Source: a virus
Lineage: Duplodnaviria; Heunggongvirae; Uroviricota; Caudoviricetes
Virus record (IMG/VR): IMGVR_UViG_2690316231_000009
Span: 1 to 14,246 of that record
Direction: 5' to 3' (one strand)
DNA: 14,246 nucleotides
Below, piece by piece: positions 432-14,246 of the stretch; positions within the stretch are counted from its first letter, which is position 1; the number at the start of each line of letters is the position of its first letter. A program made the position numbers and the translations under genes. The notes beneath the pieces are model-generated. The model saw only the letters and a program-made list of their open reading frames with translations. It was not told where the DNA came from and did not search any database.

Positions 432-473
432 TATTCCTCCCGGCCGGGATAGTGTATTAAATCAGATATGGAG

Positions 474-520
474 TGGGCTGTAGTCCGGAAGCCTGAATGA
501 CACACGGGGACTACAGCCCA
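474..520. repeat. 13-bp perfect inverted repeat (TGGGCTGTAGTCC / GGACTACAGCCCA) with 21-nt spacer, upstream of the esterase gene
   Basis: Arms at 474-486 and 508-520 are exact reverse complements. No flanking T-tract on either strand, so not a canonical intrinsic terminator. Confidence 0.5.
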
Positions 521-616
521 AGAAATGAAAAAAGGCCACGCAGTTGCGCAGCCTGATAAACCCTGGTTAAAATCCACACGATAACAACACAACAATATCA
601 GTATCTCATGCTATTG

Positions 617-641
617 CCCGAACCCATTCGGGCATTTTTTA
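617..641 (+). terminator. Candidate rho-independent terminator, plus strand
   Basis: GCCCGAA (617-623) / TTCGGGC (628-634) 7-bp stem, 4-nt loop, followed by ATTTTTT (635-641). No plus-strand ORF lies upstream, so the terminated transcript is unknown. Confidence 0.45.
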
Positions 642-646
642 CCCAT

Positions 647-673
647 AAAAAATGCCCCTCCGGAGAGGGGCAT
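647..673 (-). terminator. Candidate rho-independent terminator, minus strand, downstream of the TerB-like gene and small hydrophobic ORF
   Basis: ATGCCCCTC (652-660) / GAGGGGCAT (665-673) 9-bp stem with CGGA loop; A6 at 647-652 gives a U6 tract immediately 3' of the hairpin on the minus-strand transcript. Confidence 0.55.
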
Positions 674-838
674 GTTTGCATGCACATTCTTTTTCTTGCA
701 TGGTGCCGGGTGCCTCCCGGTGAATTCAGTATCAGCACCTGAATCCGCGATTATCCCATATACCTGGTTGCTGATCGCCCCTCCGCACAGGGGGATTCAC
801 CATGCAGAAGTGTTTTTAATAAACAGCAAATAAAAAAA

Positions 839-1006
839 TCAAGCATTATGCAGGCTGTTTCTTTTTATCACCGGCCACAGCAATACCACAATGCCGCAGA
901 CCAGCACCCCATCCGCCAGCACCGACATGATTCTGCTGGTGAAATCCACCATCACCACCAGAAACAGCAGGAGTGCAGCCACAGCCAGGCGCAGTTTTAC
1001 CGTCAC
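839..1006 (-). CDS. Possible small hydrophobic (membrane) protein, about 55 aa, translationally coupled to the upstream TerB-like gene
   Basis: Not in the ORF track (GTG start). GTG at 1006-1004 overlaps the TGA stop (1005-1003) of the TerB-like ORF. Translation VTVKLRLAVAALLLFLVVMVDFTSRIMSVLADGVLVCGIVVLLWPVIKRNSLHNA has two hydrophobic stretches. Stop TGA at 841-839. No independent SD; may be spurious. Confidence 0.3.
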   Translation of the reverse strand: MTVKLRLAVAALLLFLVVMVDFTSRIMSVLADGVLVCGIVVLLWPVIKRNSLHNA

Positions 1007-1435
1007 AGGTGATTCTCCAGACGAAGACCCAGAACACCGGCAATCTCTTCCAGCACCTTGCGCTCTTCCGGCTCAATTTCGCCGTCTGCCTCCGCAATGG
1101 CCACCGCCACATCCAGCACATCTTCCGCTTCACGCGTATCGTGTTTCACATCCTCGATCTCACGTAACGCCGCACGACGACCAGTTTTAAAGTTCGTATC
1201 CAGCTGACCGATAATGGTTGCGCTAATCGCATTAATTTCCGAGGTAAACGCAGACAACGCAGGCTGATTACGTAAGACCTGTTCGATCTTCGCTTTCTCG
1301 GAAGCCTCACATTCACCATCTGCACAGGCCACCAGGTATGCGGCGTTAATCACCGCCTGTGCCAGATCGCGTTTTTCAAACTTTTTAATTTCCGTTGCCG
1401 CTCTGCGGGCTTTTTTTACCAAAAATACCAAACAT
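1003..1435 (-). CDS. TerB-like (tellurite-resistance TerB family) protein; reading frame interrupted by an apparent 1-nt frameshift in an A7 homopolymer (1411-1417)
   Basis: The long in-frame ORF (track 1003..1464) can only start at TTG 1464-1462. A well-placed ATG at 1435-1433, preceded by AAGGA 8 nt upstream, is in the adjacent frame and stops after 16 codons (MFGIFGKKSPQSGNGN). Removing one A from the A7 run joins it to the long frame, giving MFGIFGKK-ARRAATEIKKFEKRDLAQAV.... The protein has two ADGE-type motifs (LVACADGECEASEK and AIAEADGEIEPEER) typical of TerB-like domains. Confidence 0.6.
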
Positions 1436-1566
1436 CGTGACGTTCCTTTGGGTGGGTGAGCCAACGCCCGGGAGCGATCTGCCCACAGAGAAAGTCACAC
1501 TGACCACTCCGTAAGCTCCCCCCCGAAAGGCTCTGTGGTTGGTATGCGCCGGGCGTGGCGCAGATA

Positions 1567-1600
1567 CAAAAAAGGCCCGCAAAAGCGAGACGGGAAAATA
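1567..1600 (-). terminator. Weak candidate terminator after the tRNA cluster
   Basis: On the minus strand a short GC-rich hairpin (CCCG...CGGG) is followed by CCTTTTTTG (RC of 1566-1574). Stem is only about 4 bp, so support is weak. Confidence 0.25.
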
Positions 1601-1607
1601 AGTGTAG

Positions 1608-1681
1608 CGCGTTGTACTGGAGTCGAACCAGTGACCGATTGCTTAGAAGGCAATTGCTCTGTCCTGCTGAGCTAACAACGC
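1608..1681 (-). tRNA. tRNA-Arg (anticodon UCU); the 3' CCA is not encoded (genome gives CUA)
   Basis: Manual cloverleaf fold of RC(1608-1681): acceptor GCGTTGT/ACAACGC (7 perfect pairs), D-stem GCTC/GAGC, anticodon stem ATTGC/GCAAT with loop CTTCTAA (anticodon TCT), T-arm ACTGG-TTCGACT-CCAGT, discriminator G. Positions 1605-1607 read TAG, so the 3' tail would be CUA rather than CCA. Confidence 0.8.
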
Positions 1682-1694
1682 AGAATACCGATAA

Positions 1695-1771
1695 TGGACC
1701 ACCACCGGGGACTCGAACCTCGCGCAACCAGCTTCGAAGGCTGACGCTCTATCCCGATGAGCTAATGGCGG
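1695..1771 (-). tRNA. tRNA-Arg (anticodon UCG), with a slightly imperfect cloverleaf
   Basis: RC(1695-1771) = CCGCCATTAGCTCATCGGGATAGAGCGTCAGCCTTCGAAGCTGGTTGCGCGAGGTTCGAGTCCCCGGTGGTGGTCCA. D-stem GCTC/GAGC, anticodon loop CTTCGAA (anticodon TCG), T-loop TTCGAGT, encoded CCA. Acceptor stem has two G-U pairs, T-stem has one A-C mismatch and position 1 is C. Confidence 0.7.
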
Positions 1772-1778
1772 TATGTGA

Positions 1779-1854
1779 TGGTGGCCCTTGCTGGATTTGA
1801 ACCAGCGACCTGGCGATTATGAGTCGCTCGCTCTCACCACTGAGCTAAAGGGCC
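1779..1854 (-). tRNA. tRNA with CAU anticodon, most like tRNA-Ile2 (ileX/ileZ type); part of a phage ileZ-argN-argO-like cluster
   Basis: RC(1779-1854) = GGCCCTTTAGCTCAGTGGTGAGAGCGAGCGACTCATAATCGCCAGGTCGCTGGTTCAAATCCAGCAAGGGCCACCA. Perfect acceptor stem, anticodon loop CTCATAA, T-arm GCTGG-TTCAAAT-CCAGC, encoded CCA. Closely resembles E. coli tRNA-Ile2 as I recall it. Spacers to the neighbouring tRNAs are 7 and 13 nt. Confidence 0.85.
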
Positions 1855-1882
1855 GAGCCAAAAAATAATAATCAGATGAAAA

Positions 1883-2596
1883 TCAATAATCAAGCCCTTG
1901 CCTGGATACATATCTGTCTGGCGGGAAGCCATAATAGCGGTGAAATACAGAAATAAAGTAGGACCTGCTTGAATAACCGCATTTTTCTGCTATAGTCTGT
2001 CCATATCCATGCCGGGAACATAACATATTTACAGCAACACGCATCCGCTCTTCCAGCAACAAGCGACTGAACATGCCCCCTTCATTTTTCAGTTTTGTCT
2101 TTAACAAACTCTCACTCATATGCAACTGTAGAGCAATCGCACCAAGCGTCCAGCTTGCTGATATATCTGTCTGAATTATCGCCCTGACTTTGGCACTTAT
2201 GCTGGATAAACATCCACTTAAAAACAATGACATCCGTTCATCTGTTTCAAACAGAGACAGGCAGGCCATCATAAGAAACATATCCGTGGCCTCTCCGGAA
2301 AATCCCTGGCTGGTAATTAAAGCCGCAGCCAACGCAGGATTGTTGGGTTCCAGCAACAGGTAAAGCGGAATGTCAGTCAGACGAGTCCTCGTCAGCTTAT
2401 GCTGACTTTCCAGATATTGACTTACGACGGATTCGCTTATATCGACAATTTTAACTTTGCCATAATGCATAAGGAAAAGCTCCCTGATGCATTTGGTGGC
2501 CAGAACAACTGAGCCTGGCTTAAGTGACAACGTATCCTTTTCAAGAAAAATATTAATTGGGGAGCAAACCATGATAACTGAACAGACAACAGCCAT
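1883..2596 (-). CDS. AraC/XylS-family transcriptional regulator (prophage moron)
   Basis: 237-aa ORF; the C-terminal about 100 aa (SESLLKTKLKNEGGMFSRLLLEERMRVAVNMLCSRHGYGQTIAEKCGYSSRSYFISVFHRYYGFPP) is a typical AraC-type double HTH. AT-rich relative to flanking phage genes. ATG at 2596 has no clear SD; an in-frame ATG at 2572 is an alternative start. Confidence 0.8.
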   Translation of the reverse strand: MAVVCSVIMVCSPINIFLEKDTLSLKPGSVVLATKCIRELFLMHYGKVKIVDISESVVSQYLESQHKLTRTRLTDIPLYLLLEPNNPALAAALITSQGFSGEATDMFLMMACLSLFETDERMSLFLSGCLSSISAKVRAIIQTDISASWTLGAIALQLHMSESLLKTKLKNEGGMFSRLLLEERMRVAVNMLCSRHGYGQTIAEKCGYSSRSYFISVFHRYYGFPPDRYVSRQGLDY

Positions 2597-2717
2597 TATA
2601 ATTTTACTTTCATTAGCAATTGGTTAGCTCAATTATAGCCCCAAAAGGTAAATTATCATCAACACATAAGCAAAGGACTGACAGGTGTCGCCCCCCCACC
2701 AGCCGCCCATTCACCAC

Positions 2718-2744
2718 AAATAAAAAGCCTTCAGGACTGAAGGC
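2718..2744 (-). terminator. Rho-independent terminator of the small regulator gene
   Basis: GCCTTCA (2727-2733) / TGAAGGC (2738-2744) 7-bp stem with GGAC loop, overlapping the stop codon of the 2731..2928 ORF; followed on the minus strand by TTTTTATTT (RC of 2718-2726). Confidence 0.6.
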
Positions 2745-2928
2745 GTCTGTAACAACCGCACTGATAGTCTGCCAGACCCGCCATAACAAGCTGGGTCAGT
2801 ATTAACTGGCAGCGTTCGCGTGAAAGGTAAGTATTCTGCGCAATCTCCCCGACTGTCGCCGGTTCGGTAACGCTTAATTCATCAAACACAACTCTGGCGG
2901 TTTCTGTCATATCCTGCTGTTTCAGCAT
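2731..2928 (-). CDS. Small winged-helix regulator, PapI/FaeA-like (65 aa)
   Basis: ATG at 2928; own intrinsic terminator at the 3' end. MLKQQDMTETARVVFDELSVTEPATVGEIAQNTYLSRERCQLILTQLVMAGLADYQCGCYRRLQS has the size and helix pattern of PapI/FaeA-type fimbrial regulators. The family assignment is a structural guess from memory. Confidence 0.45.
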   Translation of the reverse strand: MLKQQDMTETARVVFDELSVTEPATVGEIAQNTYLSRERCQLILTQLVMAGLADYQCGCYRRLQS

Positions 2929-3053
2929 GTCTTTTTACCCTTTCCGGTTAACGTGACATACCAATAACTCTTGTCTAAAAAGCCAGCAAGATAAAAAGCC
3001 AGTATTCACGACCACCAGCGTGTTTACTGTACTGCACCAGGTTTACAGGTACA

Positions 3054-3137
3054 AAAAAACCGCTCAGCGGCGGGTTTAAGTTGTGTGGCGAAGTAACCAC
3101 TCTTAACAGCATATTTTATTTTTTACGATTGTAAACG
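3054..3137 (-). promoter_or_regulatory. Candidate promoter followed by a weak hairpin plus U7 terminator (possible Q-dependent late promoter / tR'-like element)
   Basis: Minus strand reads TTTACA (RC of 3132-3137), 16-nt spacer, TATGCT (RC of 3110-3115). About 40 nt downstream, CCGC-TGA-GCGG (RC of 3062-3072) is followed by TTTTTTT (RC of 3054-3060). The stem is only 4 bp, so the terminator call is weak. Confidence 0.3.
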
Positions 3138-3200
3138 GTTGATTATTCATCTCCAATAAAAATAATTGTGTGGGTATGCCCTTAACAATGGATAAGAAAC

Positions 3201-3647
3201 ATGAATAAAATGACTGTACTATTACTTAGCGCAACTATCATTTCAGGTTGTACTTCTTCCGTACCATTGATAAAGAAAACTCAATCAGGAAAACCTGAGG
3301 GGGTTTATCAAAATACGACAAAAGATAAAGTCAAAGATGCCCTTGTGAATTACTGCAATAGTAGAGGGTTGATAATTTACAACGCGGATAACAGCAGTGT
3401 TATATGTGGTAAAGAACTGGAAGGCGGCTCTGCTGTTTTTGGACAAATGTTAATCGGCAATGCCTATTCAACAACCCCGGTATCAAAAGTCAGATTTACT
3501 ATCGCTCAAGTTAATAACGATACAAAAGTGTGGGCCGATATGTGGATGGAAACTCAAATGGCAATGGGGCAAGTACAACAAATGTCTATAACAGACAACG
3601 CAAGCAAAAACACTATCCAACAACGTCTTGATGAATTAAAACCTTAA
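3201..3647 (+). CDS. Lipoprotein of unknown function (148 aa), AT-rich moron convergent with Q
   Basis: N-terminus MNKMTVLLLSATIISGCTSS has a positively charged n-region, hydrophobic core and lipobox ISGC. Markedly lower GC than surrounding phage genes. Opposite strand to the lytic operon. Confidence 0.7.
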   Translation: MNKMTVLLLSATIISGCTSSVPLIKKTQSGKPEGVYQNTTKDKVKDALVNYCNSRGLIIYNADNSSVICGKELEGGSAVFGQMLIGNAYSTTPVSKVRFTIAQVNNDTKVWADMWMETQMAMGQVQQMSITDNASKNTIQQRLDELKP

Positions 3648-3648
3648 A

Positions 3649-3686
3649 TAAATTAAATAAAATGGGGAGAATAAATCGACTCCCCA
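3649..3686 (-). terminator. Rho-independent terminator just downstream of Q, lying between the convergent Q and lipoprotein genes
   Basis: TGGGGAG (3663-3669) / CTCCCCA (3680-3686) 7-bp stem with 10-nt loop; on the minus strand it is followed by TTTTATTTAATTTA (RC of 3649-3662). Confidence 0.5.
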
Positions 3687-3727
3687 CACATTAAACTGAT
3701 TCAATTACCCCCTCAATAAGAGGTCTT

Positions 3728-4093
3728 CTAACGATCCATCTCTAGCTCAATTTCTAACATCATTAACATGCCATCAACTACACCTTCAGCTTTTTGCAAT
3801 AAACGCCCAACCCAGCAATCAGAACGCCCATGTTTACGGGCAAGCGCCATAAAAGTCATACCACCTACATAATAATCCACTAATAAATCGTGCAAATCGC
3901 TGTTGTTCTTTTTCAGGCGAGCCATGCATCCACAAATGATCATCGCGTCATCGTCACAACATTGCGGGCGGGATTTTACTTTTGAAGGGATTAGTCCTTT
4001 AAATCCTGCAGCAATAGACGACCAGGTGACATCCTCGTGATTATTTGCCACCCATGCCCCCCAACGTTCAAGAACCATTTGAATATCACGCAT
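3728..4093 (-). CDS. quuD: Late-gene antiterminator Q, QuuD-like
   Basis: Starting at ATG 4093-4091 (GGAG SD 7 nt upstream) the protein reads [75 protein letters not shown]..., which I recognise as very close to the DLP12 prophage antiterminator QuuD (YbcQ). The track start at 4108 is a TTG extension. Confidence 0.8.
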
Positions 4094-4110
4094 CAACTTT
4101 CTCCACAAAA

Positions 4111-5106
4111 TCAGGCCAGCACGCCAATTGCCAGCGCACGATCGATAAAACGAAATATCAGCTCCAGCTGGGAGCCATACTTCTCTTCAAATGCCACGGT
4201 ATCCGCATGCAGCTCGTCGTGATGCTTTCTGCACAAAGGCAACACAAAAAGGTCATGCGCTTTTGTTCCCATTCCACCCTGACCGTGACCTATCAGGTGG
4301 TGGGGATCATCAGCGGGCTTTCCACAACATGCACACGGCTGTGTCTTAACCCAGCGCGTGTACTTTTCATTAACCCAGCGGCGACGTTTTGGGCGTAACA
4401 TAAAAGACTCCGGCGACTCCGGATCCACTTTCAGCGCCAGCACCTTTTTCGCCTTATCCTGGATGATGCTGGTGGCAGGAACCGAAGGCACAAGGTCACT
4501 TTCCCGGGTAACAGACGGCACAACAGGCTTCGGTAATCTCAGTGCCTTACGGGCTGCACTTTCCGGTAAGGCATCCGCCAGATCATTACGAATCAGCCAC
4601 CAGCACAGTTCCGGCATTGTCACAACGTGACTGTCATCAAAACCGAGATCCCGACGCACAACAGACAACACCCAGCGGGCACAGTTATCCGTTGCCATTG
4701 ATTCCAGCCGTTCCGTGAACTGATCGCGCAGCTGGTTATCGCAGTGCCAGCACAGACGGATTGCACCCGGAGCGTGTCGCATTGTGGTCATGTTCTCGCT
4801 GTGCCAGTCGGAATGAGGCCACTGGCAGCCTTTTTCACGAAGTAACCAGCTTTCAAGACATTCCACGCCACCAGCACGACGGATCACTGCCTCATTGCGG
4901 AACACGGCCCGAACGGCAGGATCATCCGCCAGCGGTTGTGATGCCGCCGGAACGGCACCACTGGCGAAAGATGAATAACGCTCCGGCTCAGGCTCCAGCA
5001 GGACACGCCCCTGCATAAACAGGGGCATCAGCTCTGAACCTGGCCTGAACAATACGATCCCCATACGCGGGGCAATTTCAGGGGTCAGTAGTGCTCTCAC
5101 GGTCAC
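4111..5106 (-). CDS. DUF968-family protein (HNH-like Cys/His motif), lambdoid nin-region type
   Basis: 331-aa ORF; C-terminal [45 protein letters not shown] matches the DUF968 signature. GTG start at 5106 lies 1 nt after the KilA-N stop (coupled); exact start uncertain. Confidence 0.75.
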
Positions 5107-5107
5107 C

Positions 5108-5917
5108 TCAATGAACGGTATCGAGCAGCTTTAACAGCTCAGGGAATCGGGATTCGAAGAAATGCGGCTGCGTCTCGCGCGGATTTGCGGGACTGGTGAT
5201 GTTCTTGCCGAACATGCAGCCTTTCGCTGTCAGCGACCAGAATTTTTTGATGTTGTTAATCGCGGTACGACTGTATCGTTCGCGCTGCTCGACGATCCCC
5301 AGTTTCACCATCTGGTGATATGCCTGATTAGCCGTCAGGCGTATACCATACTGTTTCAGCAGTGCACTCAGTGACAGTGTCGGGCGACTTGAGCCATCGT
5401 GTGCATCAGCAGGAGCATCAATGGCATAGCGCGGTGCCAGATTCGGTAAGCCAACAGCCTCCTGGAGTTTCTGACAGGCACCAAGCACAGATGAGTTAGA
5501 CAGGTTTAACTCCCGACGCATAAAGTCCAGCAGAATCACACCAGCCTGCATCTTGTCAGCAGCCTGTCCGGATAATTTTTCCGGTGCGCTGGTTACCATG
5601 TCGAAAGTACGGATCACCTTAAGATGGAATGACGGGCTTATCCACATTGCATAGGCATACACCAGTTCTTTGCAGACATACGTTCCCCGTTCATTTCCCC
5701 CATGAATCACACTCACCGGGTCAACACCCAAATTCTGGGTGTTGGTCAATTCATGAACAAGTTCAACAGTTTGTTGGCTGGAAAGAAACTTTCCTGGCTC
5801 CTTGGTTCTGGCATTTGCACCAGATGCTACTGCTGCGCGATGTAGATCGTTCAGGCTGTAACGCCCATAAACATCACGACGAACTTCAATACCATCAATG
5901 ACCATCAGATTATTCAT
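5108..5917 (-). CDS. KilA-N domain protein (putative antirepressor-like)
   Basis: Best start is ATG 5917-5915 with AGGAG 9 nt upstream (MNNLMVIDGIEVRRDVYGRYSLNDLHRAA...); the track start at 5950 is an 11-codon extension. The N-terminal about 110 aa (...GGNERGTYVCKELVYAYAMWISPSFHLKVIRTFD) is a KilA-N domain. Confidence 0.75.
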   Translation of the reverse strand: MNNLMVIDGIEVRRDVYGRYSLNDLHRAAVASGANARTKEPGKFLSSQQTVELVHELTNTQNLGVDPVSVIHGGNERGTYVCKELVYAYAMWISPSFHLKVIRTFDMVTSAPEKLSGQAADKMQAGVILLDFMRRELNLSNSSVLGACQKLQEAVGLPNLAPRYAIDAPADAHDGSSRPTLSLSALLKQYGIRLTANQAYHQMVKLGIVEQRERYSRTAINNIKKFWSLTAKGCMFGKNITSPANPRETQPHFFESRFPELLKLLDTVH

Positions 5918-5936
5918 ACTTCGTTTCTCCTCTTGA

Positions 5937-6326
5937 TCAGGCGGCTGCACCCGCCGTTTTCTCGTACTTACTGATAGTGATCTCGACCTTCCCTTTCGGG
6001 ATAACCGGTCCCCACTCCACCAGCATTCTTTTCACCTGACTGTCGTCTTCCCACACACCCGCGTGGGTCAGGGCGTCAAACAGCGCCTTGTTATAGTTGT
6101 CCAGATCGCGGATCCTGTTATCCGGAGGAAACAACACGATCTCCACTGAAGCAGGTGCCGACGTTGGTTTCGGCAGACGACGTAACTGCTCAATGATGGC
6201 GGCACACGCCGCGCTCTGAAATTTTCGCCCCGCCTCGCTTATCAGGCTCTTACCAGCAAATGCCCCTTTGTTGGGGTGTCGCCAGTACGTGTTCACGCTG
6301 GGCGGAAAAGGCAGTATTAGCTTCAT
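5937..6326 (-). CDS. rusA: RusA-family Holliday junction resolvase
   Basis: 129 aa; MKLILPFPPSVNTYWRH...VEIVLFPPDNRIRDLDNYNKALFDALTHAGVWEDDSQV matches RusA hallmarks (PxxxN..YW N-terminus, acidic RDLDN catalytic region). ATGA overlap with the upstream methyltransferase stop. Confidence 0.85.
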   Translation of the reverse strand: MKLILPFPPSVNTYWRHPNKGAFAGKSLISEAGRKFQSAACAAIIEQLRRLPKPTSAPASVEIVLFPPDNRIRDLDNYNKALFDALTHAGVWEDDSQVKRMLVEWGPVIPKGKVEITISKYEKTAGAAA

Positions 6327-6976
6327 GCCACCATCTCCCTGACCAGTTTTTCCGCCTGCTGGCGAACCTGCGCCAGAAAGGCCTCACCACATGCCTCAAG
6401 TTCATCGCGCCCGATGTAGCTGATTGCCGGTCCCTTCCAGGTCTTGTCGAAAACAGCAATAGCACCAGCGAAGAAAGCGCCTGTCGGCACCTGCTTCTCA
6501 TCCTTCGGGATAAACCAGGCAGGCAGTTCAAAACCAATACGCCCGCGAATAAAAGTAATATGGTCCGCATCTTCCGGCCACCACACTTCGCTGGTGGCCG
6601 CTTTGATCAGGAAAACATAGCGCCCGCCCTTATCACGCATGGCACTGGCATGTTTCATGATGTAACGCATGCCGGTGATGTATTGCCCCTCATGCTGACT
6701 GGCGCGGCTGTATGGGGGATTACCAAAGGCAGCACCTTTAAGCTCCGCAAGACGTTCTGACCAGTCATGCGCCAGCGCGTTGTCTTCCGCCGTGTAATAC
6801 GCGGCACATTTGGCGTTATCACCGTCAGTGAACAGATCCAGAACAAACGGACCAAACAAGGTGTTAATTCCCCAGAAAATGTTGTCCGGCGTGCGCCACT
6901 GATCGCCCACTTCCTTCAGTTCATGGGCTGGTTTGTTCCGCAGTTCTACCAGCGCCTGGCAATATTTATTACTCAT
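6323..6976 (-). CDS. Phage N6-adenine DNA methyltransferase (orphan, Dam-like)
   Basis: Start ATG 6976-6974 with GGGGG SD 4 nt upstream (MSNKYCQALVELRNK...); the track start at 7021 is an extension. Contains the amino-MTase motif IV GNPPY (AAFGNPPYSRAS). No adjacent restriction endonuclease gene. Confidence 0.8.
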   Translation of the reverse strand: MSNKYCQALVELRNKPAHELKEVGDQWRTPDNIFWGINTLFGPFVLDLFTDGDNAKCAAYYTAEDNALAHDWSERLAELKGAAFGNPPYSRASQHEGQYITGMRYIMKHASAMRDKGGRYVFLIKAATSEVWWPEDADHITFIRGRIGFELPAWFIPKDEKQVPTGAFFAGAIAVFDKTWKGPAISYIGRDELEACGEAFLAQVRQQAEKLVREMVA

Positions 6977-7070
6977 TAAGCCCCCACGTAAAAAGCATCC
7001 GCAATGTCTCCGGAAGTACACCCCGGATGGGCTTCAATGAATTTCTGAACTTCATTCAAAAGACTCATGA

Positions 7071-8066
7071 TCACCCCCTGAATCCTTCCGGGATCTGGCT
7101 GTAGTCCACGTTGTCGTAACTGGCTTTGAAGTACGGGTCCTCGCGTCTGGCTGCAGATACCGCAGGAACTTCCCAGGATTCTTCGAAATGACGATCCGGA
7201 CCAAAGAACGTCGACGCCTGCTTCACGAACTGGGTACCGGTATTTCCAGAGACACGCACCCAGGCGGCATAGCGTTTCACACCGTCGAGCATGGTTTCGG
7301 GTGTCACACCTTCCCTGATTCGGGCTTTCCAGGCTTTAAAAGCGGCGGATTTTGAATTACCACCAGCACGTTTGGGATATTCCTGCCAGGCCTGTTCAAA
7401 TTCCGGTGAATATTCCTGTCTGGCAGAACGCGCTGGTGCAGACGCGTCAGCGGATGCGCCAATAGTGTTTTTAGTCTCCGTTGTAATCTCTGTAGTAATC
7501 TCTGTAGTAATCTCTGTATTTGTATCAACATTCGGCGTATCCCCTGTTCCGTTATGACGTCGGGGGGTGTTCCGTTTTAACGTAATAGCTGTATCGCTGA
7601 TTGCATTATTGCTGTTACTTTCTGGCGAAACAGAAGAAGGTGTGGTGATGGCCGCAATTGCCTGTGGGTTGATCCCGACAAACAAAATATTGCTGCATTT
7701 CACCCCATCGAGCATTTCCACCGTGCGTAAATCCAGAGTAATAAACCCTGCATCGCGCAGACGCTTCAGCGCATCTGCGGTTTCCCTTTTCCCGAAACCA
7801 AACTGCTCAGCAAACGCCTGGTAGCTTCTTTGCAGTTTGTCGCCCTGAAAACGCTTGCGATATCCCAGCAACGCTCCGGTGTGCTCATCCCTGACCTCTG
7901 TCGGGCGGTACCAGTAAACGATCTCTGAAAGCAGAGCGATAGCCGTCGCATCCGGACGCCCACTGGGTAGTCGAATATATTTCCACCAGGTCGCAGGTGT
8001 AACATTGCCGGAAATATTAATTTGACCAATAGCCATAACTTCCGGTGTGGGGGCGTAACGGCTCAT
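7071..8066 (-). CDS. Putative phage replication initiator / replisome organizer (O-like) with internal tandem repeats
   Basis: 331-aa ORF; ATG 8066 with AAGGAGG SD; ATGA overlap with the upstream ORF. It sits where lambdoid phages place the replication initiator and contains 12-bp tandem repeats encoding TEITTEITTEITTE. Function is inferred from position and the embedded repeats, not from a recognised motif. Confidence 0.5.
   Translation of the reverse strand: MSRYAPTPEVMAIGQINISGNVTPATWWKYIRLPSGRPDATAIALLSEIVYWYRPTEVRDEHTGALLGYRKRFQGDKLQRSYQAFAEQFGFGKRETADALKRLRDAGFITLDLRTVEMLDGVKCSNILFVGINPQAIAAITTPSSVSPESNSNNAISDTAITLKRNTPRRHNGTGDTPNVDTNTEITTEITTEITTETKNTIGASADASAPARSARQEYSPEFEQAWQEYPKRAGGNSKSAAFKAWKARIREGVTPETMLDGVKRYAAWVRVSGNTGTQFVKQASTFFGPDRHFEESWEVPAVSAARREDPYFKASYDNVDYSQIPEGFRG
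7471..7518. repeat. Tandem 12-bp direct repeats (three exact or near-exact copies plus one degenerate), candidate origin iterons inside the replication gene
   Basis: TAATCTCTGTAG at 7483-7494 and 7495-7506, TAATCTCTGTAT at 7507-7518, preceded by the degenerate copy TAGTCTCCGTTG at 7471-7482. In-frame within the 7071..8066 CDS. Confidence 0.75.
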
Positions 8067-8362
8067 ACAACCTCCTTCCGCAGCATGAGAATTGTGTAGC
8101 CACGCGCAGGTTGTAGTCTGGCTTTTGCATCAATAGTAAGCGTTGCAATTTTTCGGATATGAAGATAACCAGCTCTTTCCAGTGCCAGGGTTTCCCTGAA
8201 TATCGCTTGCTTAGAACAACAGCAGAAATCAGCAAGCACCTGATGATCAATAACTCTCTCGCCTTCACCGTCTGAAGAACCCGACATCAAAACACGCAAC
8301 ATAATCAGGCGCTGAATCGGGTTATCGAAAGCACATCCGCACACAAACTGAAAACAGTTCAC
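8063..8362 (-). CDS. Hypothetical protein (99 aa), possibly HTH-containing
   Basis: GTG start at 8362-8360 overlaps the stop of the upstream ORF (GTGA); its stop overlaps the start of the replication gene (ATGA). No family recognised. Confidence 0.45.
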   Translation of the reverse strand: MNCFQFVCGCAFDNPIQRLIMLRVLMSGSSDGEGERVIDHQVLADFCCCSKQAIFRETLALERAGYLHIRKIATLTIDAKARLQPARGYTILMLRKEVV

Positions 8363-8583
8363 GCCACACCTCCCAGACGCTTAAACATTTTTCCGGAGCA
8401 AAAGGCTATAAGCGGCATACTGACGCGGTAATTACGGCCCAGCGGTTCACAAACCACCTTCTGACATTCACGGTCAACCAGGCTAACACGTAGAACATGC
8501 CCAGCAGGCGTGGTGTACCACTGACCCGGACGAGGACAACGGAAAGTATGATTGGTAAACCGTTTGAAAATATTCCGGATCAT
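8359..8583 (-). CDS. Hypothetical protein (74 aa)
   Basis: ATG 8583-8581 overlaps the TGA stop of the Rha ORF (ATGA). No recognisable motif. Confidence 0.4.
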   Translation of the reverse strand: MIRNIFKRFTNHTFRCPRPGQWYTTPAGHVLRVSLVDRECQKVVCEPLGRNYRVSMPLIAFCSGKMFKRLGGVA

Positions 8584-9740
8584 TTGCGCCCCCTTACCTC
8601 TGAAGGGTTCAGCGACAAATTTATGAGACTGGCCAGCGCCGAAGCATCATTAATATAGTCATATAAGCTAACAGCCAGCGGAGATTCGGCTTTTGCCAAC
8701 ATAGGATAAAGCTGCTGCAGCCAGACCTGATGAATTGATGAAATGTAGGAACAGAGAACGCTGGCGTTATGTGCAACGTCGCTCGGTACAGCGGGCTTTG
8801 AAAGCTGTTTCTCCATCTGGTTAAAGGCATTTATGTATGCCTCTTTGAACCGGGCAGCACGTTTACCCGTGAAACCCATAGCAAGAAACGCAAAACCGTC
8901 TCGTGTGATTTGATAGCAAGGGAGCTTGCGTGTACCACCGTTCGGTTGATTTACCGAAATCGATGTCTCCGCAAAATTGCGGGCACAAAACTCTGGGGAA
9001 CAATCCAGAGTGCGGATCTTTTTCAGCACATCGTCGTGACGCTTGGAGAAGAAGTTGGCAACAGCCAAAGAAGTGGTAACGGCCTGGCCGTTGTCAATGG
9101 TGATTTCAGGTTGAGTGAGGGCTGGGATCGTAGCCATGATGGCAGCCTCCGTTGACAGTGAAAAACTTCCACCACCGGAAACGCCAATTTCACTGGTGGT
9201 GAACTGGACGGGGTTGGCGTAACCGGCGTCAACGGAGACCGGCGCACCTTTCGGTGCCCCCGCCCAGCCCACCATAATCTGGATGTGAGCAAATGCGGAC
9301 GATAAAAAAGACGCTGGCGCGTCATACATCGCCGTTGACAATTTCAGGACGCCAATCCCGGCACCCGCTTTATAAGGTGCCTGAGCAGTGTAACGTCCCG
9401 GAATTGCAGAATCAATATGCTGGTGGTCCTTCACACTCAACAAAATCACGCCTGAATTTCCACAAAGGACTAAAGCACTCATGCGGGTAGTCTTTGCGAA
9501 GATAGATAACGCGCTGTGTTTCTGGCTCCCAACGAATAACATGGACATAAAGCCCTCTTCCGTCACGAAACCAGCGGTTAAGTTCCTGCACAACTCGCCC
9601 CCCACAGTCAGGTAAAGTTCTCTGTGGTTACTTACAGCCAGGTGATTTGGTAATCTGCATTCATGCCGTAACAACAGGTGTTCAGCGACGCTGACCACCA
9701 GCTGTTGCGACAAACGGTTATTTGCCGTTAAACTATTCAT
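8580..9740 (-). CDS. Rha-family phage regulatory protein with an about 200-aa N-terminal extension of unknown function; strong internal start at 9137
   Basis: 386-aa uninterrupted ORF. Residues about 220-310 (LAVANFFSKRHDDVLKKIRTLDCSPEFCARNFAETSISVNQPNGGTRKLPCYQITRDGFAFLAMGFTGKRAARFKEAYINAFNQME) form a Phage_pRha domain. ATG 9740 overlaps the CII-like stop (ATGA). An internal ATG at 9137 with GGAGG 8 nt upstream would give a 185-aa stand-alone Rha protein (MATIPALTQPEITIDNGQAV...). Confidence 0.6.
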   Translation of the reverse strand: MNSLTANNRLSQQLVVSVAEHLLLRHECRLPNHLAVSNHRELYLTVGGELCRNLTAGFVTEEGFMSMLFVGSQKHSALSIFAKTTRMSALVLCGNSGVILLSVKDHQHIDSAIPGRYTAQAPYKAGAGIGVLKLSTAMYDAPASFLSSAFAHIQIMVGWAGAPKGAPVSVDAGYANPVQFTTSEIGVSGGGSFSLSTEAAIMATIPALTQPEITIDNGQAVTTSLAVANFFSKRHDDVLKKIRTLDCSPEFCARNFAETSISVNQPNGGTRKLPCYQITRDGFAFLAMGFTGKRAARFKEAYINAFNQMEKQLSKPAVPSDVAHNASVLCSYISSIHQVWLQQLYPMLAKAESPLAVSLYDYINDASALASLINLSLNPSEVRGRK

Positions 9741-10294
9741 GCGTTAGTTTCTCCACAACCAGAAGCAATCGACGCCACGACGCCCGGAGCTGCACACTCG
9801 CGGGCGTTACTATTTTCTGGAGCGCAGAAGATTTTGTAGACCAGTGCTGCATGCTCCTGGAGCTTCGAAATTGAAAGATACAGTTCGTCGTTAATTGCTG
9901 TCTTCTCATGCGGTTCCACTACACCGTCTTCGATTGCTGAACGAATCTGTTTTGAATAACTGCCGATCTGTTCAATGACTTCCAGTAAACGCTGGTTAAT
10001 ATCGGCATTGTCCACATCCTCGACGTCAGGAAGAGACACAAAGACGCCATTTGCAGACTGCGCCACAGCGTCAGCAATGAAGTGAGTGCCACCAGCACGT
10101 TGTAAAATCATTGCCCATCCCAGCGGGAAAATCTGATCGCCATCGGCACGAAGGCGGTTAAATAATGCGTTCTCTGTTACATCCAGCCACTCAGCAGCTT
10201 CAGCGTAACCCTCCGGCAACGCCGCGATAGTTTTTCTGACAGCTTTCACGTACCACTCAGGCTGTTTTTCCACTTTCCAGTGATGATTACCCAC
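9737..10294 (-). CDS. Putative CII-like lysogeny regulator (phage 186 CII / CP76-like), 185 aa
   Basis: GTG start at 10294 with AGGAGG 6 nt upstream; immediately downstream of cro, where lambdoid phages place cII. Assignment rests on position and loose resemblance only. Confidence 0.4.
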   Translation of the reverse strand: MGNHHWKVEKQPEWYVKAVRKTIAALPEGYAEAAEWLDVTENALFNRLRADGDQIFPLGWAMILQRAGGTHFIADAVAQSANGVFVSLPDVEDVDNADINQRLLEVIEQIGSYSKQIRSAIEDGVVEPHEKTAINDELYLSISKLQEHAALVYKIFCAPENSNARECAAPGVVASIASGCGETNA

Positions 10295-10547
10295 GGCTTA
10301 CCTCCTGTTCCTGTGGTTTAAACCCATTCTGGTTTTGGCTAGATTGAAAACGTGCCGGATAAAGAATCTGCATTTCGCTGATTTCACCCTTAAAAAAATT
10401 GGCCAGACGTTCTGCAAGATCGATAGATGGAATTTGTTCCAGTCTTTCAATACGACTCAGCGTCGCTGGATTGACCTGAACGCCAGCAGCAACATGCTGC
10501 AAAGTAAATCCGTGCGCCTTACGCACATTCCGTAATGGTGATTGCAT
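10287..10547 (-). CDS. Cro-like HTH (XRE-family) regulator
   Basis: 86 aa; MQSPLRNVRKAHGFTLQHVAAGVQVNPATLSRIERLEQIPSIDLAERLANFF is a canonical XRE HTH. Divergent from the repressor gene across an operator-rich spacer; GGAGG SD upstream of ATG 10547. Confidence 0.75.
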   Translation of the reverse strand: MQSPLRNVRKAHGFTLQHVAAGVQVNPATLSRIERLEQIPSIDLAERLANFFKGEISEMQILYPARFQSSQNQNGFKPQEQEVSRG

Positions 10548-10644
10548 ATGACCTCCACATATTGCGTGATGAGCATATTATTTCACGCAAATATTTTGCG
10601 CAAGTTGATTTGCTTAACGCGCAATAAAGAAATGTAATAAACGC
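10548..10644. promoter_or_regulatory. Immunity-region divergent promoter/operator spacer (OR-like) with repeated TTGCG...CGCAA palindromic elements
   Basis: TTGCGTGA (10562-10569) / TCACGCAA (10583-10590) and TTGCGC (10596-10601) / GCGCAA (10619-10624) form two 29-bp inverted repeats of identical geometry. TTGCGCAA (10596-10603) is an 8-bp palindrome. TTGCTTAACGCGCAA (10610-10624) resembles the 15-mers found downstream of cI. Confidence 0.6.
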
Positions 10645-11337
10645 ATGAACATAGGAAACCGAGTCAGACAACTTCGCCAGGCGAAGAACATGAAAATCGC
10701 CGATCTCGCTGAAGCAATAGGAGTGGATGCGGCGAATATCTCACGCCTGGAAACAGGTAAGCAGAAACAATTCACTGAACAAGCCCTGAGTAATATTGCC
10801 AGGAGCTTAGGTGTTGATATTGCTGATCTCTTTACCTCAGACGTCAAAAGTAATACTGTATGTAAAAACAGTATTAGTGAGGATGTTGCGCAGGTGAAGG
10901 ATGTATTCCGTATTGAAATGCTGGATGTCAGTGCCAGTGCGGGAAATGGCCTTATCCAGGGCGGTGATGTCATTGATGTGATTCATGCCATTGAATACAG
11001 AACTGATAATGCTGTATCGATGTTTGGCGGACGGCCAGCCAATCACATTAAAGTTATCAACGTTCGTGGGGACAGTATGTGTCCAACCATTGAGCCAGGA
11101 GATCTCATCTTCGTTGATGTCAGTATCAATCAGTTTGATGGAGATGGTATCTATGTATTTGGTTTTGATGATAAAATTTATGTCAAACGACTGCAAATGA
11201 TACCTGACAAACTACTGGTGATTTCTGATAACCAGATTTACCGTGAATGGGGAATTACCAGCGAAAATGAACACCGGTTTATGGTCTTTGGAAAGGTCTT
11301 AATCAGCCAGTCACAAACCCTTAAGCGACACAATTAA
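10645..11337 (+). CDS. CI-type prophage repressor (HTH_XRE N-domain plus S24 LexA-like autopeptidase C-domain)
   Basis: 230 aa; N-terminal HTH (VRQLRQAKNMKIADLAEAIGVDAANISRLETGK); Ala-Gly cleavage site (SASAGNG); catalytic Ser in GDSMCPTI and Lys in YVKRL. No SD precedes the ATG at 10645. Confidence 0.9.
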   Translation: MNIGNRVRQLRQAKNMKIADLAEAIGVDAANISRLETGKQKQFTEQALSNIARSLGVDIADLFTSDVKSNTVCKNSISEDVAQVKDVFRIEMLDVSASAGNGLIQGGDVIDVIHAIEYRTDNAVSMFGGRPANHIKVINVRGDSMCPTIEPGDLIFVDVSINQFDGDGIYVFGFDDKIYVKRLQMIPDKLLVISDNQIYREWGITSENEHRFMVFGKVLISQSQTLKRHN

Positions 11338-11357
11338 CCCTTACCTCCTCATCAATT

Positions 11358-11382
11358 AGCCACCCAAAGGTGGCTTTTCATT
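11358..11382 (+). terminator. Rho-independent terminator downstream of the repressor gene
   Basis: AGCCACC (11358-11364) / GGTGGCT (11369-11375) stem with CAAA loop, followed by TTTTCATT. Confidence 0.6.
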
Positions 11383-11392
11383 ACCCTTTAAA

Positions 11393-11446
11393 TTGCATAT
11401 CTCGCAATAAAAACACTTGCATAATGCGCAACTTCATTTTATCTTT
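11393..11446 (+). promoter_or_regulatory. Candidate OL/pL region: two 15-bp operator-like elements overlapping a promoter-like sequence
   Basis: TTGCATATCTCGCAA (11393-11407) and TTGCATAATGCGCAA (11417-11431) share the TTGC-N7-GCAA layout seen in the cI-cro spacer. TTGCAT (11418-11423) followed 17 nt later by TATCTT (11441-11446) is promoter-like. Confidence 0.35.
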
Positions 11447-11876
11447 CTTTCCAGACAAACAAACAAGGTACTAACAAAATTTGGTTGTAACACGACGTAT
11501 GGCACATGCGTCGTTAGCGGTCTGGGGACGTTAAAGGGGACAATCCACTCCTTGCTCGAGCAAACAAACCAGGTAGCCGGAATGTGCAAGTCAATGATGA
11601 TGCTGATAAGACGCCTAACCAGCGTGGCGGTTCGGTTTGACACCTGGGAAGAGACCAGGGTGCAACGATGAGGGCATTTATGGAACCGCGACAAAGTGTG
11701 GTGCCGTAACTGGCTAAGTGCTCTCAGCGTTGTGGTGAATGCGCAGGCTGATGCGCGAAAGACATTGCAGCTATTGCGGAAAAGAGCTGTTCGGCGGGGC
11801 AATTAAACGCCCGTGAGAGTCTGAAATAACCGCAAGCCGGAGATCAGCACCGGTCACCACAACAGCCACTGCTTTG

Positions 11877-11923
11877 GCGGTACCAGTTTGTACACTTGCT
11901 TCCGGCTGGTACCGCTCTTTTTA
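11877..11923 (+). terminator. Candidate intrinsic terminator/attenuator in the early-left leader; its T-tract resembles a boxA element
   Basis: GCGGTACCAG (11877-11886) / CTGGTACCGC (11906-11915) 10-bp stem with 19-nt loop, followed by TCTTTTTACAAAA. CGCTCTTTTTA (11913-11923) resembles boxA (lambda CGCTCTTA; rrn GCTCTTTAACAA). Confidence 0.35.
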
Positions 11924-12059
11924 CAAAACAGAGAAGAGCATCACCGGCCGACGGGCTCATAACCCAATCCATCCGGGCGGCTGCCACCGCAGGTGTTCTT
12001 CTCTGTTTTGTGGAGAAACCAACCGACCTTGCAGGGTCGATATGATGAGGAGCAGCAAA

Positions 12060-12422
12060 ATGGCTAGCGAACGCAGTACTGATGTGCAGGCATTTATCGG
12101 GGAGCTGGACGGCGGCGTATTTGAAACCAAAATCGGCGCTGTTCTCAGTGAAGTCGCTTCCGGTGTGATGAATACGAAAACCAAAGGTAAGGTCTCGCTC
12201 AACCTGGAAATCGAACCATTTGATGAGAACCGTGTGAAAATCAAACACAAACTCTCATATGTTCGCCCGACTAACCGCGGGAAAATTTCCGAAGAAGACA
12301 CCACCGAAACGCCGATGTATGTCAATCGCGGTGGTCGCCTGACTATTCTGCAGGAAGACCAGGGACAATTACTGACTCTTGCCGGTGAACCTGACGGAAA
12401 ACTCCGCGCAGCAGGTCATTAA
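12060..12422 (+). CDS. Hypothetical early-left protein, YfdP-like (120 aa)
   Basis: ATG 12060 with GAGGAG 7 nt upstream (MASERSTDVQAFIGELDGGVFETKIGAVL...). The track ORF 11874..12422 adds an implausible upstream extension. Resemblance to CPS-53 YfdP is from memory. Confidence 0.5.
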   Translation: MASERSTDVQAFIGELDGGVFETKIGAVLSEVASGVMNTKTKGKVSLNLEIEPFDENRVKIKHKLSYVRPTNRGKISEEDTTETPMYVNRGGRLTILQEDQGQLLTLAGEPDGKLRAAGH

Positions 12423-12487
12423 TATCGTTTTTAATAAACTGATTATTTCTCTCATCACTGAATATTTTTATATAGTGAGGACTTATT

Positions 12488-13312
12488 ATGTCTCAGAACT
12501 TAGACGCAACCGCAATTAATCAAATCCATGCCCTTATTTCTGCTCAGGGTGTTAATGAAATTATCAGTAAGATTGGTGCCGATGCTGTGGCATTGCCTGA
12601 GAATTTCCGCATTCATGATCTGGAAAAATTTAATTTAAATCGTTTCCGTTTCCGTGGTGCGCTTTCCACTGCCAGCATCGATGACTTTACTCGTTATTCT
12701 AAAGATCTTGCAGATGAAGGCACCCGCTGCTTTATCGATGCCGATAATATGCGTGCCGTCAGTGTGCTTAACCTGGGTACTATTGATGAGCCAGGTCACG
12801 CAGATAACACTGCCACTCTCAAACTGAAAAAGACAGCACCGTTCTCTGCTCTGTTGTCTGTTAATGGCGAGCGTCATTCCCAGAAGTCACTGGCAGAATG
12901 GATTGAAGACTGGGCCGACTACCTTGTGGGCTTTGATGCTAATGGTGACGCTATTCAGGCAACAAAAGCGGCTGCGGCTGTCCGTAAAATCACGATTGAA
13001 GCAAACCAGACCGCTGATTTTGAAGATAATGACTTCAGCGGCAAACGCTCCCTGATGGAGTCTGTCGAAGCGAAAACCAAAGATATTATGCCAGTGGCAT
13101 TTGAATTTAAATGCGTTCCGTTTGAAGGTCTGAAAGAACGTCCATTTAAATTACGCCTCAGCATTATCACTGGCGATCGTCCTGTACTGGTTCTGCGCAT
13201 TATTCAGCTGGAGGCGGTGCAGGAAGAAATGGCTAACGAATTTCGTGATCTGCTTGTTGAGAAATTCAAAGACAGCAAAGTAGAAACCTTTATTGGTACT
13301 TTCACCGCCTGA
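12488..13312 (+). CDS. DUF2303-family protein, YfdQ-like (274 aa)
   Basis: ATG 12488 with GTGAGG 7 nt upstream. Sequence [40 protein letters not shown]...[11 protein letters not shown] matches my recollection of E. coli CPS-53 YfdQ in length and sequence. Confidence 0.65.
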
Positions 13313-13324
13313 TTTCATTACTGC

Positions 13325-13346
13325 AAATGCCCCTGCGGGGGCATTT
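13325..13346 (+). terminator. Hairpin between the YfdQ-like and YfdR-like genes (weak terminator or attenuator)
   Basis: AAATGCCCC (13325-13333) / GGGGCATTT (13338-13346) 9-bp stem with TGCG loop; the downstream T-tract is short. Confidence 0.3.
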
Positions 13347-13439
13347 ATGGAAACGTAATTGACTCAATAATCGCCGGATGGTGAGGGCTTCCTTTTACCA
13401 GAATTCAGCGTGGTGCAGCACATATACGCGGAGAACAAA

Positions 13440-13964
13440 ATGTCATTTATTAAAACTTTTTCCGGGAAGCATTTTTATTATGACAGGATAAATAAAGACG
13501 ACATCGTGATTAACGATATCGCGGTTTCCCTTTCAAATATCTGTCGCTTTGCCGGTCATCTTTCACACTTCTACAGTGTCGCCCAACATGCGGTGCTTTG
13601 CAGCCAGCTGGTGCCGCAGGAATTTGCTTTTGAAGCGTTAATGCATGATGCAACAGAAGCGTATTGCCAGGACATCCCCACGCCGCTGAAACGTCTTCTT
13701 CCTGACTATAAACGGATGGAAGAAAAAATAGACGCCGTAATCCGTGAGAAATACGGGTTACCCACGGTTATGAGCACGCCTGTGAAATATGCCGATCTCA
13801 TCATGCTGGCAACCGAACGCCGCGATCTCGGGCTTGATGATGGCTCTTTCTGGCCTGTACTGGAAGGTATCCCGGCAACAGAGATGTTCAAAGTTATTCC
13901 ACTGTCGCCAGGCCATGCCTATGGGATGTTTATGGAACGCTTTAAAGAGTTAACTGAGTCGTAA
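13440..13964 (+). CDS. HD-domain phosphohydrolase, YfdR-like (5'-deoxynucleotidase family), 174 aa
   Basis: ATG 13440 with GGAG 6 nt upstream (MSFIKTFSGKHFYYDRINKDDIVINDIAVSLSNICRFAGHLSHFYSVAQHAVL...LMHDATEAY...). The H...HD metal-binding motifs are present. The track start at 13410 is an extension. Confidence 0.7.
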   Translation: MSFIKTFSGKHFYYDRINKDDIVINDIAVSLSNICRFAGHLSHFYSVAQHAVLCSQLVPQEFAFEALMHDATEAYCQDIPTPLKRLLPDYKRMEEKIDAVIREKYGLPTVMSTPVKYADLIMLATERRDLGLDDGSFWPVLEGIPATEMFKVIPLSPGHAYGMFMERFKELTES

Positions 13965-14072
13965 AAATCAGCACGTACGAATTCAAACTCTGCCATAAAA
14001 GAACATATAAGTAATTTATTAACATATAGATATAGGTTATATTACAAATTGAAAAATTATTGGAGAGCAACA

Positions 14073-14114
14073 ATGAATCAAAATCCATTCTCATTCTATG
14101 ACTTTCTTGGATAT
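14073..14114 (+). pseudogene. 5' remnant (14 codons) of a gene truncated by the IS2 insertion
   Basis: ATG 14073 with GGAGAG 5 nt upstream; reads MNQNPFSFYDFLGY and then runs directly into the IS2 terminal inverted repeat, whose first three bases (TAG, 14115-14117) supply the stop. Confidence 0.4.
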
Positions 14115-14246
14115 TAGACTGGCCCCCTGAATCTCCAGACAACCAATATCACTTATTTAAGTGATAGTCTTAATACTAGTTTTTAGACTAGTCATTGGAG
14201 AACAGATGATTGATGTCTTAGGGCCGGAGAAACGCAGACGGCGTAC
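14115..14246 (+). mobile_element. IS2 left end (terminal inverted repeat and 5' region), extending beyond the window
   Basis: 14115 onward reads TAGACTGGCCCCCTGAATCTCCAGACAACCAATATCACTT...AGTTTTTAGACTAGTCATTGGAGAACAGATGATTGATGTCTTAGGGCCGGAGAAACGCAGACGGCGTAC, near-identical to the canonical IS2 left end and start of orfA as I recall it. Confidence 0.85.
14206..14246 (+). CDS. insC: IS2 transposase OrfA (InsC), first 13 codons; continues beyond the window
   Basis: ATG 14206 with GGAGAA SD; translation MIDVLGPEKRRRR matches the N-terminus of IS2 InsC. Confidence 0.85.
   Translation, partial: MIDVLGPEKRRRR

Follow-up and report, generated by a model that had tools for sequence, protein, structure and literature searches.

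Insertions of IS2 into genes and prophages have been textbook material since the 1970s and are classically polar. Cases described earlier include a hot target in phage P1, hemB, and gal (Sengstag et al., 1983; Lewis et al., 1994; both as cited in PMC3299598), and IS2 is reported to prefer intrinsically curved, AT-rich DNA. The left inverted repeat (IRL) of the element is 42 bp long, and the extra G/C pair at its position 9 is essential for the function of IRL as a recipient and for accurate formation of the circle junction (PMC3299598; PMC3219604). The OrfA operator covers IS2 residues 39–48 and the TGAT of the promoter P_IRL covers residues 48–51 (PMC3299598). An outward-reading –35 element lies at the opposite end, in the right inverted repeat (IRR; PMC3219604; PMC9330008), where it can pair with a –10 element of the target as a fusion promoter, in the cases cited for ampC (Jaurin and Normark, 1983), acrEF, and neoR (as summarized in the review PMC9330008). 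On the protein side, the closest described system is Csx27, a four-helix membrane protein of type VI-B1 CRISPR loci whose wider family occurs in other contexts as well (Makarova et al., 2019, as cited in PMC7642515).

The stretch of DNA analyzed here (the window, 14,246 bp) is the complete draft contig CYFT01000084.1 of assembly GCA_001285945.1, with the reverse complement identical over the 12,596 bases compared. Very probably, IS2 entered a 288-codon gene in the early-left region of a prophage, behind codon 14 and in the direction of the gene, duplicated the target GATAT, and knocked the gene out in a recent, strain-specific event. Coordinates below are on the + strand of the window unless marked otherwise. 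A Shine–Dalgarno core, GGAG, can be read directly at 14062–14065, 7 nt before the ATG at 14073–14075, in keeping with the strong ribosome-binding site that the first-pass annotation had seen ahead of this open reading frame. The junction reads ...TTGGAGAGCAACA, then ATG AAT CAA AAT CCA TTC TCA TTC TAT GAC TTT CTT GGA TAT, then TAG ACT GGC CCC CTG AAT CTC C.... The 14 codons of this stub (MNQNPFSFYDFLGY; 14073–14114) are the first 42 nt of the intact gene at empty sites, and the GATAT at 14110–14114, which is single at the empty site, is taken as the left copy of the 5-bp duplication. The sequence that follows, TAGACTGGCCCCCTGAATCTCC..., is the left end of IS2, and its nt 1–3 supply, on translation, the TAG stop (14115–14117) that closes the stub. 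The first-pass annotation had begun the IS2 left terminal repeat at 14115, directly after 14 codons, and these coordinates are all correct to the base. When the flank was compared by BLAST with 5,426 complete E. coli genomes, all matches ended at window 14115 and none crossed the junction. The homology break therefore lies exactly at the tip of IS2, an agreement far beyond chance. Sequence searches found no copy of the left-junction 43-mer in genome_contigs, metagenome_contigs, or viral_contigs, nor of the predicted right junction in viral_contigs, and neither junction is present among the 5,426 complete E. coli genomes.

From 14115 the sequence continues as IS2 (IS3 family) up to the contig end, as the earlier reading had supposed, covering IS2 nt 1–132 (14115–14246) in the orientation of the interrupted gene. 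These bases agree with the curated IS2A of K-12 MG1655 (381260–382590) at 130/132 positions, in register from the first base, and with copies annotated 'IS3-like element IS2 family transposase' at 132/132 (E=6e-62) in many genomes. By sequence comparison, IRL occupies 14115–14156 (TAGACTGGCCCCC...) with a run of five Cs that includes the extra G/C pair at position 9 (PMC3299598; PMC3219604), and it matches the IRL of K-12 IS2A except at residue 42. The sole differences from IS2A are A to T changes at 14156 and 14157 (residues 42 and 43; A42T/A43T). Residues 39–48, the OrfA repressor-binding region as positioned in PMC3299598, lie at 14153–14162 (TTATTTAAGT versus TTAAATAAGT), and A42T/A43T converts the core of the proposed operator from TAAATAA to TATTTAA. 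This operator variant occurs exactly in several hundred E. coli records, among them the copies in the LEE and in the E2 prophage discussed below. The weak extended –10 promoter P_IRL begins at 14162–14170 with TGAT (IS2 residues 48–51; position from PMC3299598), followed by TAGTCT as the putative hexamer. IS2 orfA (insC) has its own GGAG at 14197–14200 and its ATG at 14206, which is IS2 nt 92 (offset +91 as in IS2A); its first 13 codons (MIDVLGPEKRRRR) plus 2 nt (14206–14246) have the offset and sequence of insC1 in K-12 IS2A. The subterminal operator, the TGAT of P_IRL, and the orfA start are thus all at canonical IS2 offsets. The 41-bp IRR, the full 1331-bp length, and the DDE transposase made by a –1 frameshift between orfA and orfB belong to the part of the element beyond the window, which stops at IS2 nt 132; the right repeat and the orfA/orfB features are present in related copies (L016, L029, L014, and L015).

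IS2 is abundant in this lineage, with ~13 left ends in the closest complete genome that has an empty site. The contig stops in IS2 because short-read assembly breaks at a multicopy repeat, and the stop 132 nt into the element is a repeat-induced break of this kind. We consider it very unlikely that the window instead records an IS2-associated deletion or a solo left-end fragment, with the rest of the gene and the downstream DNA lost. Only 132 nt of IS2 are visible and a partner contig with the gene remainder was not retrieved from the source assembly, there being no protein-level marker on that side, and both points would suit such a loss. However, where a multicopy repeat is intact, short-read contigs normally end about one k-mer length inside it, and a matching right junction with GATAT is present in the same lineage (see below). 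Less credible still is an assembly artefact in which IS2 bases were mis-appended to a gene that is intact in the strain: the window does stop at the end of a draft contig, but the break falls exactly at IS2 nt 1, and in a second, independent assembly the reciprocal junction sits exactly at the final IS2 base and repeats those 5 bp, a transposition footprint that a random chimera would not give. The other end of the window lies within a DUF1737/DUF6645 gene that is found in another prophage context too, and both window ends look like repeat-induced assembly breaks. As a separate observation, many draft contigs of E. coli and Shigella flexneri (P0002-P0010; L025-L028; L032) begin or end no more than ~50 nt from the start codon of the interrupted gene (~14025–14105). 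This clustering could reflect a loss of coverage where the DNA is very AT-rich, or additional insertions.

Up to the insertion (1–14114), the window differs by 4 SNPs (~100% identity) from a dusA-integrated lambdoid prophage in the chromosome of the poultry E. coli strain E2. About a dozen other complete genomes, poultry strains among them, are equally close, and all have an empty site, as do 10/10 contexts returned by a search based on YfdR. The empty-site sequence CTTGGATATTTAATACC contains one GATAT, and the reading frame runs on as ...GGA TAT TTA ATA CCA GGT.... There, the ATG corresponding to 14073 opens an intact 867-bp, 288-codon gene (WP_001075213.1) that is intact in >200 complete genomes; the stub is thus the start of a longer gene in empty-site relatives, and the continuation beyond the element that the first-pass annotation had called for is found in a related assembly (see below), directly behind an IS2 right end and a GATAT. 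The gene has 30% GC versus 48.5% in the rest of the window. All on the + strand, the gene order is an XRE/S24 (cI-type) repressor (10645–11337), yfdP (12060–12422; Pfam YfdP), yfdQ (12488–13312; Pfam DUF2303), the 5'-deoxynucleotidase gene yfdR (13440–13964; Pfam YfbR-like), which is the last intact gene upstream of the insertion, the 288-codon gene, and a PrtN/excisionase gene, with a cro-like HTH gene divergent. Coordinates of the three yfd genes were carried over from the annotation of E2, which is 100% identical here. The PrtN-family gene starts 40 nt downstream of the 288-codon gene and matches PHROG 1300 'excisionase', and past it lie a convergent Panacea-domain module, a dusA 5' fragment, yjbLM, zur, dinF, and lexA. 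In E2 (L014), the Panacea-domain module adjoins the dusA 5' fragment at the attachment site. On the basis of the gene order and the flanking dusA fragment, the prophage is a dusA-integrated lambdoid prophage and the interrupted gene lies in its early-left arm. The interruption of an early-left gene by IS2 was thus correctly called: the stub is the start of a gene on the cI-repressor strand between yfdR and the PrtN-type excisionase gene.

Two further features of the prophage portion of the window were observed. An AraC-type HTH gene (1883–2596, – strand) carries A201T relative to E2 (SNP at 1996). Its product is the one window protein that differs from E2, and this A201T protein also occurs, as an exact match, in a different lambdoid prophage context with a ParDE module (L018, L021-L023). 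Also on the – strand, a prophage tRNA cluster (1607–1854) was called by ARAGORN as Arg(tct), Arg(tcg), and Met(cat); the RefSeq annotation of E2 gives the tRNA with the CAT anticodon as tRNA-Ile.

The insertion is private to the strain and recent, as its flank is only 4 SNPs away from empty-site genomes and a search of 5,426 complete genomes gave neither junction. The first-pass annotation had taken it to mark the prophage as at least partly decayed on this side. IS2 at 14115 does add one lesion, but the insertion is recent, is private to the strain, hits an accessory gene, and has a 14.1-kb flank with just those 4 SNPs; it is not itself evidence for long-term decay of this side of the prophage. 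The E2 prophage (L014, 182000–231000) already bears lesions unrelated to the window IS2, namely a second IS2, a truncated minor tail gene L, and several partial genes. This second IS2 has a GAAGC duplication, is flanked by YlcI-like and DUF3950 gene fragments close to the terminase genes, and lies ~19 kb from the insertion site, oriented like the window IS2; the window IS2 end (with five Cs) differs from this second copy. Some relatives have an extra 1.3-kb IS in the prophage, which in E2 is IS2. The E2 prophage also carries the virulence-related cargo genes nleG7 and sodC, and the truncated tail gene L adjoins sodC.

A homology search with the intact protein led to HAH9805840.1 (P0047), a protein of 288 aa that is identical over only 95%. 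It begins MITGVWKYRGKSRY, followed by LIPGG..., and is translated from a GTG in the right end of IS2. The only contig in the collection that encodes it is DABDDA010000030.1 of GCA_012745995.1 (L016), which reads IS2 IRR ...GGGGCAAATCCA, GATAT, TTAATACC, and whose chromosomal side is 99.95–99.99% identical to the window lineage. Annotated as 'hypothetical protein' (L016:10001–10867), this reading frame consists of 13 IS2 right-end codons, starting with GTG, fused in frame to codons 14–288, with the length of 288 aa restored by coincidence. The product is without residues 3–13 of the family-invariant motif, and judged by its makeup is an IS2–gene chimera rather than a true protein variant. GATAT abuts IRL in the window and IRR in L016 and is single at empty sites; these flanks therefore point to a 5-bp target duplication, as expected of IS2. 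Control IS2 copies have 5-bp duplications of ATTAC (K-12), TAAGG (SCPM-O-B-12142), and GAAGC (E2). We infer that the left and right junctions stem from one insertion event; the left comes from GCA_001285945.1 and the right from GCA_012745995.1, two assemblies of one lineage that are not demonstrably one molecule. The first-pass annotation had proposed that extending the sequence would give the IS2 right end and the 5-bp duplication. IRR and GATAT were indeed found in the related assembly, but the source contig itself gives no further sequence. In searches for the partner contig, the D4 variant of the junction reading frame was absent from a collection of 15 billion proteins, the form starting at Met25 (P0121) led only to unrelated lesions, and the P0087 contigs read through an empty site.

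The contig with the right junction also has an unexpected left side. L016:7415–10867 has the order ler, TAAGG, IS2, GATAT, and remainder of the prophage gene, with unlike flanks on one IS2, and the element is preceded on its left not by yfdR but by the LEE type III secretion island, at its ler end. The complete genome of SCPM-O-B-12142 contains the same ler-TAAGG-IS2 junction with a proper TAAGG duplication, followed by espG. This LEE copy is on the opposite strand relative to the window-type insertion and ~437 kb from the prophage site, which is empty in that genome. The IS2 in L016 (8708–10037) is base-for-base the LEE copy of SCPM-O-B-12142 (L029:4910–6239), at 1330 bp; this length results from a run of four rather than five Cs at IRL position 9, and the window end has five. 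As a side observation, the LEE IS2 between ler and espG is without the extra G/C pair, and this copy may be transposition-impaired.

The LEE-joined IS2 in L016 points to a later inversion between two IS2 copies or to an assembler join. In the first case, IS2 inserted into the prophage gene and then recombined with the inverted LEE copy between ler and espG, giving an inversion of ~0.43 Mb, a segment that on the K-12 map would presumably include oriC and dnaA. A two-step reading of this kind, in which the window and L016 are reciprocal products, is the simplest one, and we hold it tentatively, as a possibility of some weight. It fits the unlike TAAGG and GATAT flanks of the L016 element, its identity to the LEE copy of SCPM-O-B-12142, and the inverted orientation of that copy ~437 kb away. 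The five Cs at the left end in the window and the four in L016 are as expected of two reciprocal products, and the occurrence of each junction only once in very large collections agrees with a single clone. By contrast, L016 is a draft contig that crosses a 1.3-kb multicopy repeat, where the assembler could have made the join, GCA_001285945.1 and GCA_012745995.1 may come from different strains, and the window carries no information past IS2 nt 132. Were the inversion real, the source strain would have the window IS2 followed by espG and the gene remainder joined to the ler-side IS2. The present arrangement in the source strain may thus not be a simple contiguous insertion, and the window alone fits a contiguous or an inverted one.

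In the proposed course of the insertion, IS2, an IS3-family element that moves by copy-out/paste-in, entered an accessory gene of a dusA-integrated lambdoid prophage, the host being E. coli of a LEE lineage, and the 5-bp target GATAT was duplicated. The TAG of IS2 ends the frame and leaves a 14-residue stub. The reading frame closes inside the invariant N-terminal motif, the most conserved part of the protein, and the interrupted gene is probably null, with possible polarity on the downstream PrtN-type excisionase gene. In the intervals from yfdR to the gene and from there to the PrtN gene, a consensus scan flagged no promoter- or terminator-like site, and it found a strong terminator hairpin 3' of the PrtN gene. 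Because of this, the PrtN-type excisionase gene is probably co-transcribed with the 288-codon gene. The 1.3 kb of IS2 would now part it from upstream promoters, and a polar effect is possible. The first-pass annotation had also suggested that IS2 may place outward-reading promoter elements near neighboring genes. Such a –35 element exists, but it is in IRR, outside the window, and IRR would point toward the PrtN gene and what remains of the interrupted gene, not toward anything within the window. At the IRR-GATAT junction of L016, the consensus scan flagged no fusion promoter; the best candidate found there by eye has ~4/6 + 4/6 matches with a 16-nt spacer.

The interrupted protein matches PHROG 12528 (unknown function) end to end (288/288, E=5e-161). 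It has four hydrophobic segments (residues 10–40, 58–78, 207–238, and 240–267), and an AlphaFold (AF2) model is all-helical with long helices (pLDDT 70, pTM 0.71). Residues 3–19 are invariant in 16 homologues, with the N-terminal motif QNPFS.YDFLGYLIPGG. The PADLOC Csx27 profile PDLC01605 matches 16/16 family members with a best E=5.6e-8, in a comparison that is without a curated cut-off and to which the compositional bias of membrane proteins may contribute. Foldseek searches of PDB and BFVD gave no significant structural match. SieB (PF14163) was considered and rejected, as the score reaches 18.8 bits where the cut-off is 26 bits, and only 1/16 family members match. On these profile and topology predictions, the product resembles Csx27 as a putative four-helix membrane protein, and does not resemble SieB. 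No cas genes were found within 10 kb in 10+ contexts, where the neighbors are prophage genes and the dusA attachment site, and neither cas13b nor a CRISPR array lies nearby.

Other lesions of the same gene were seen in other strains. These are the end of an ISKpn26 (IS5-family) element at nt 116/117, a foreign IS-like end (...GGGGATCTCTCAG) at ~nt 47, a TCA to TAA nonsense change at codon 7, unrelated sequence joined at nt 13, and single-base indels, of which a part could be sequencing errors in homopolymers (loci L017:1–125, L033:1–30, L031:2264–2336, L034, L009:10634–11502, and L035:1–50). The same gene has been repeatedly and independently inactivated in other strains. An exclusion or defense role of the interrupted protein is no more than a lead. 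We regard as doubtful a broader reading in which the gene is a Csx27-family, AT-rich moron in the early-left arm of dusA-type lambdoid prophages whose product acts in superinfection exclusion or abortive infection, or is otherwise costly to the lysogen, and is recurrently knocked out on that account, and in which, separately, IS2 mediated a ~0.43-Mb inversion between the LEE and the prophage. If a defense or exclusion role of the Csx27-like protein were true, recurrent inactivation would be selected, and if the inversion between the LEE and the dusA prophage were true, an attaching-effacing lineage of E. coli would contain a structural variant. The event itself is ordinary and of an already known kind, a strain-private example at the end of a draft contig. 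Its value for annotation is that the 14-codon reading frame is a pseudogene stub, HAH9805840.1 a chimera, and the contig break repeat-induced.

As a comparison with known systems, the window copy is like K-12 IS2A, which splits yaiX, in its orfA start, in the 5-bp target duplication, and in an insertion into coding sequence that makes a pseudogene. Unlike IS2A, it sits in a prophage accessory gene and carries A42T/A43T, with nt 1–132 visible. It is also like the classical insertions in P1, hemB, and gal with respect to insertional inactivation, possible polarity, and an AT-rich target, here of 30% GC. By contrast, it differs from the IS2 fusion promoters of ampC, acrEF, and neoR in that the end bearing the –35 element is outside the window and the junction scan flags nothing. 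The interrupted protein is like Csx27, the accessory protein of type VI-B1 CRISPR-Cas13b systems, in its profile match and four predicted membrane helices, but differs in its prophage early-left setting and in its length, 288 aa versus 206 profile positions, the central part holding a large soluble insert. With SieB of lambda and P22 it has in common that it is a small membrane protein and that its gene lies in the early-left region of lambdoid phages.
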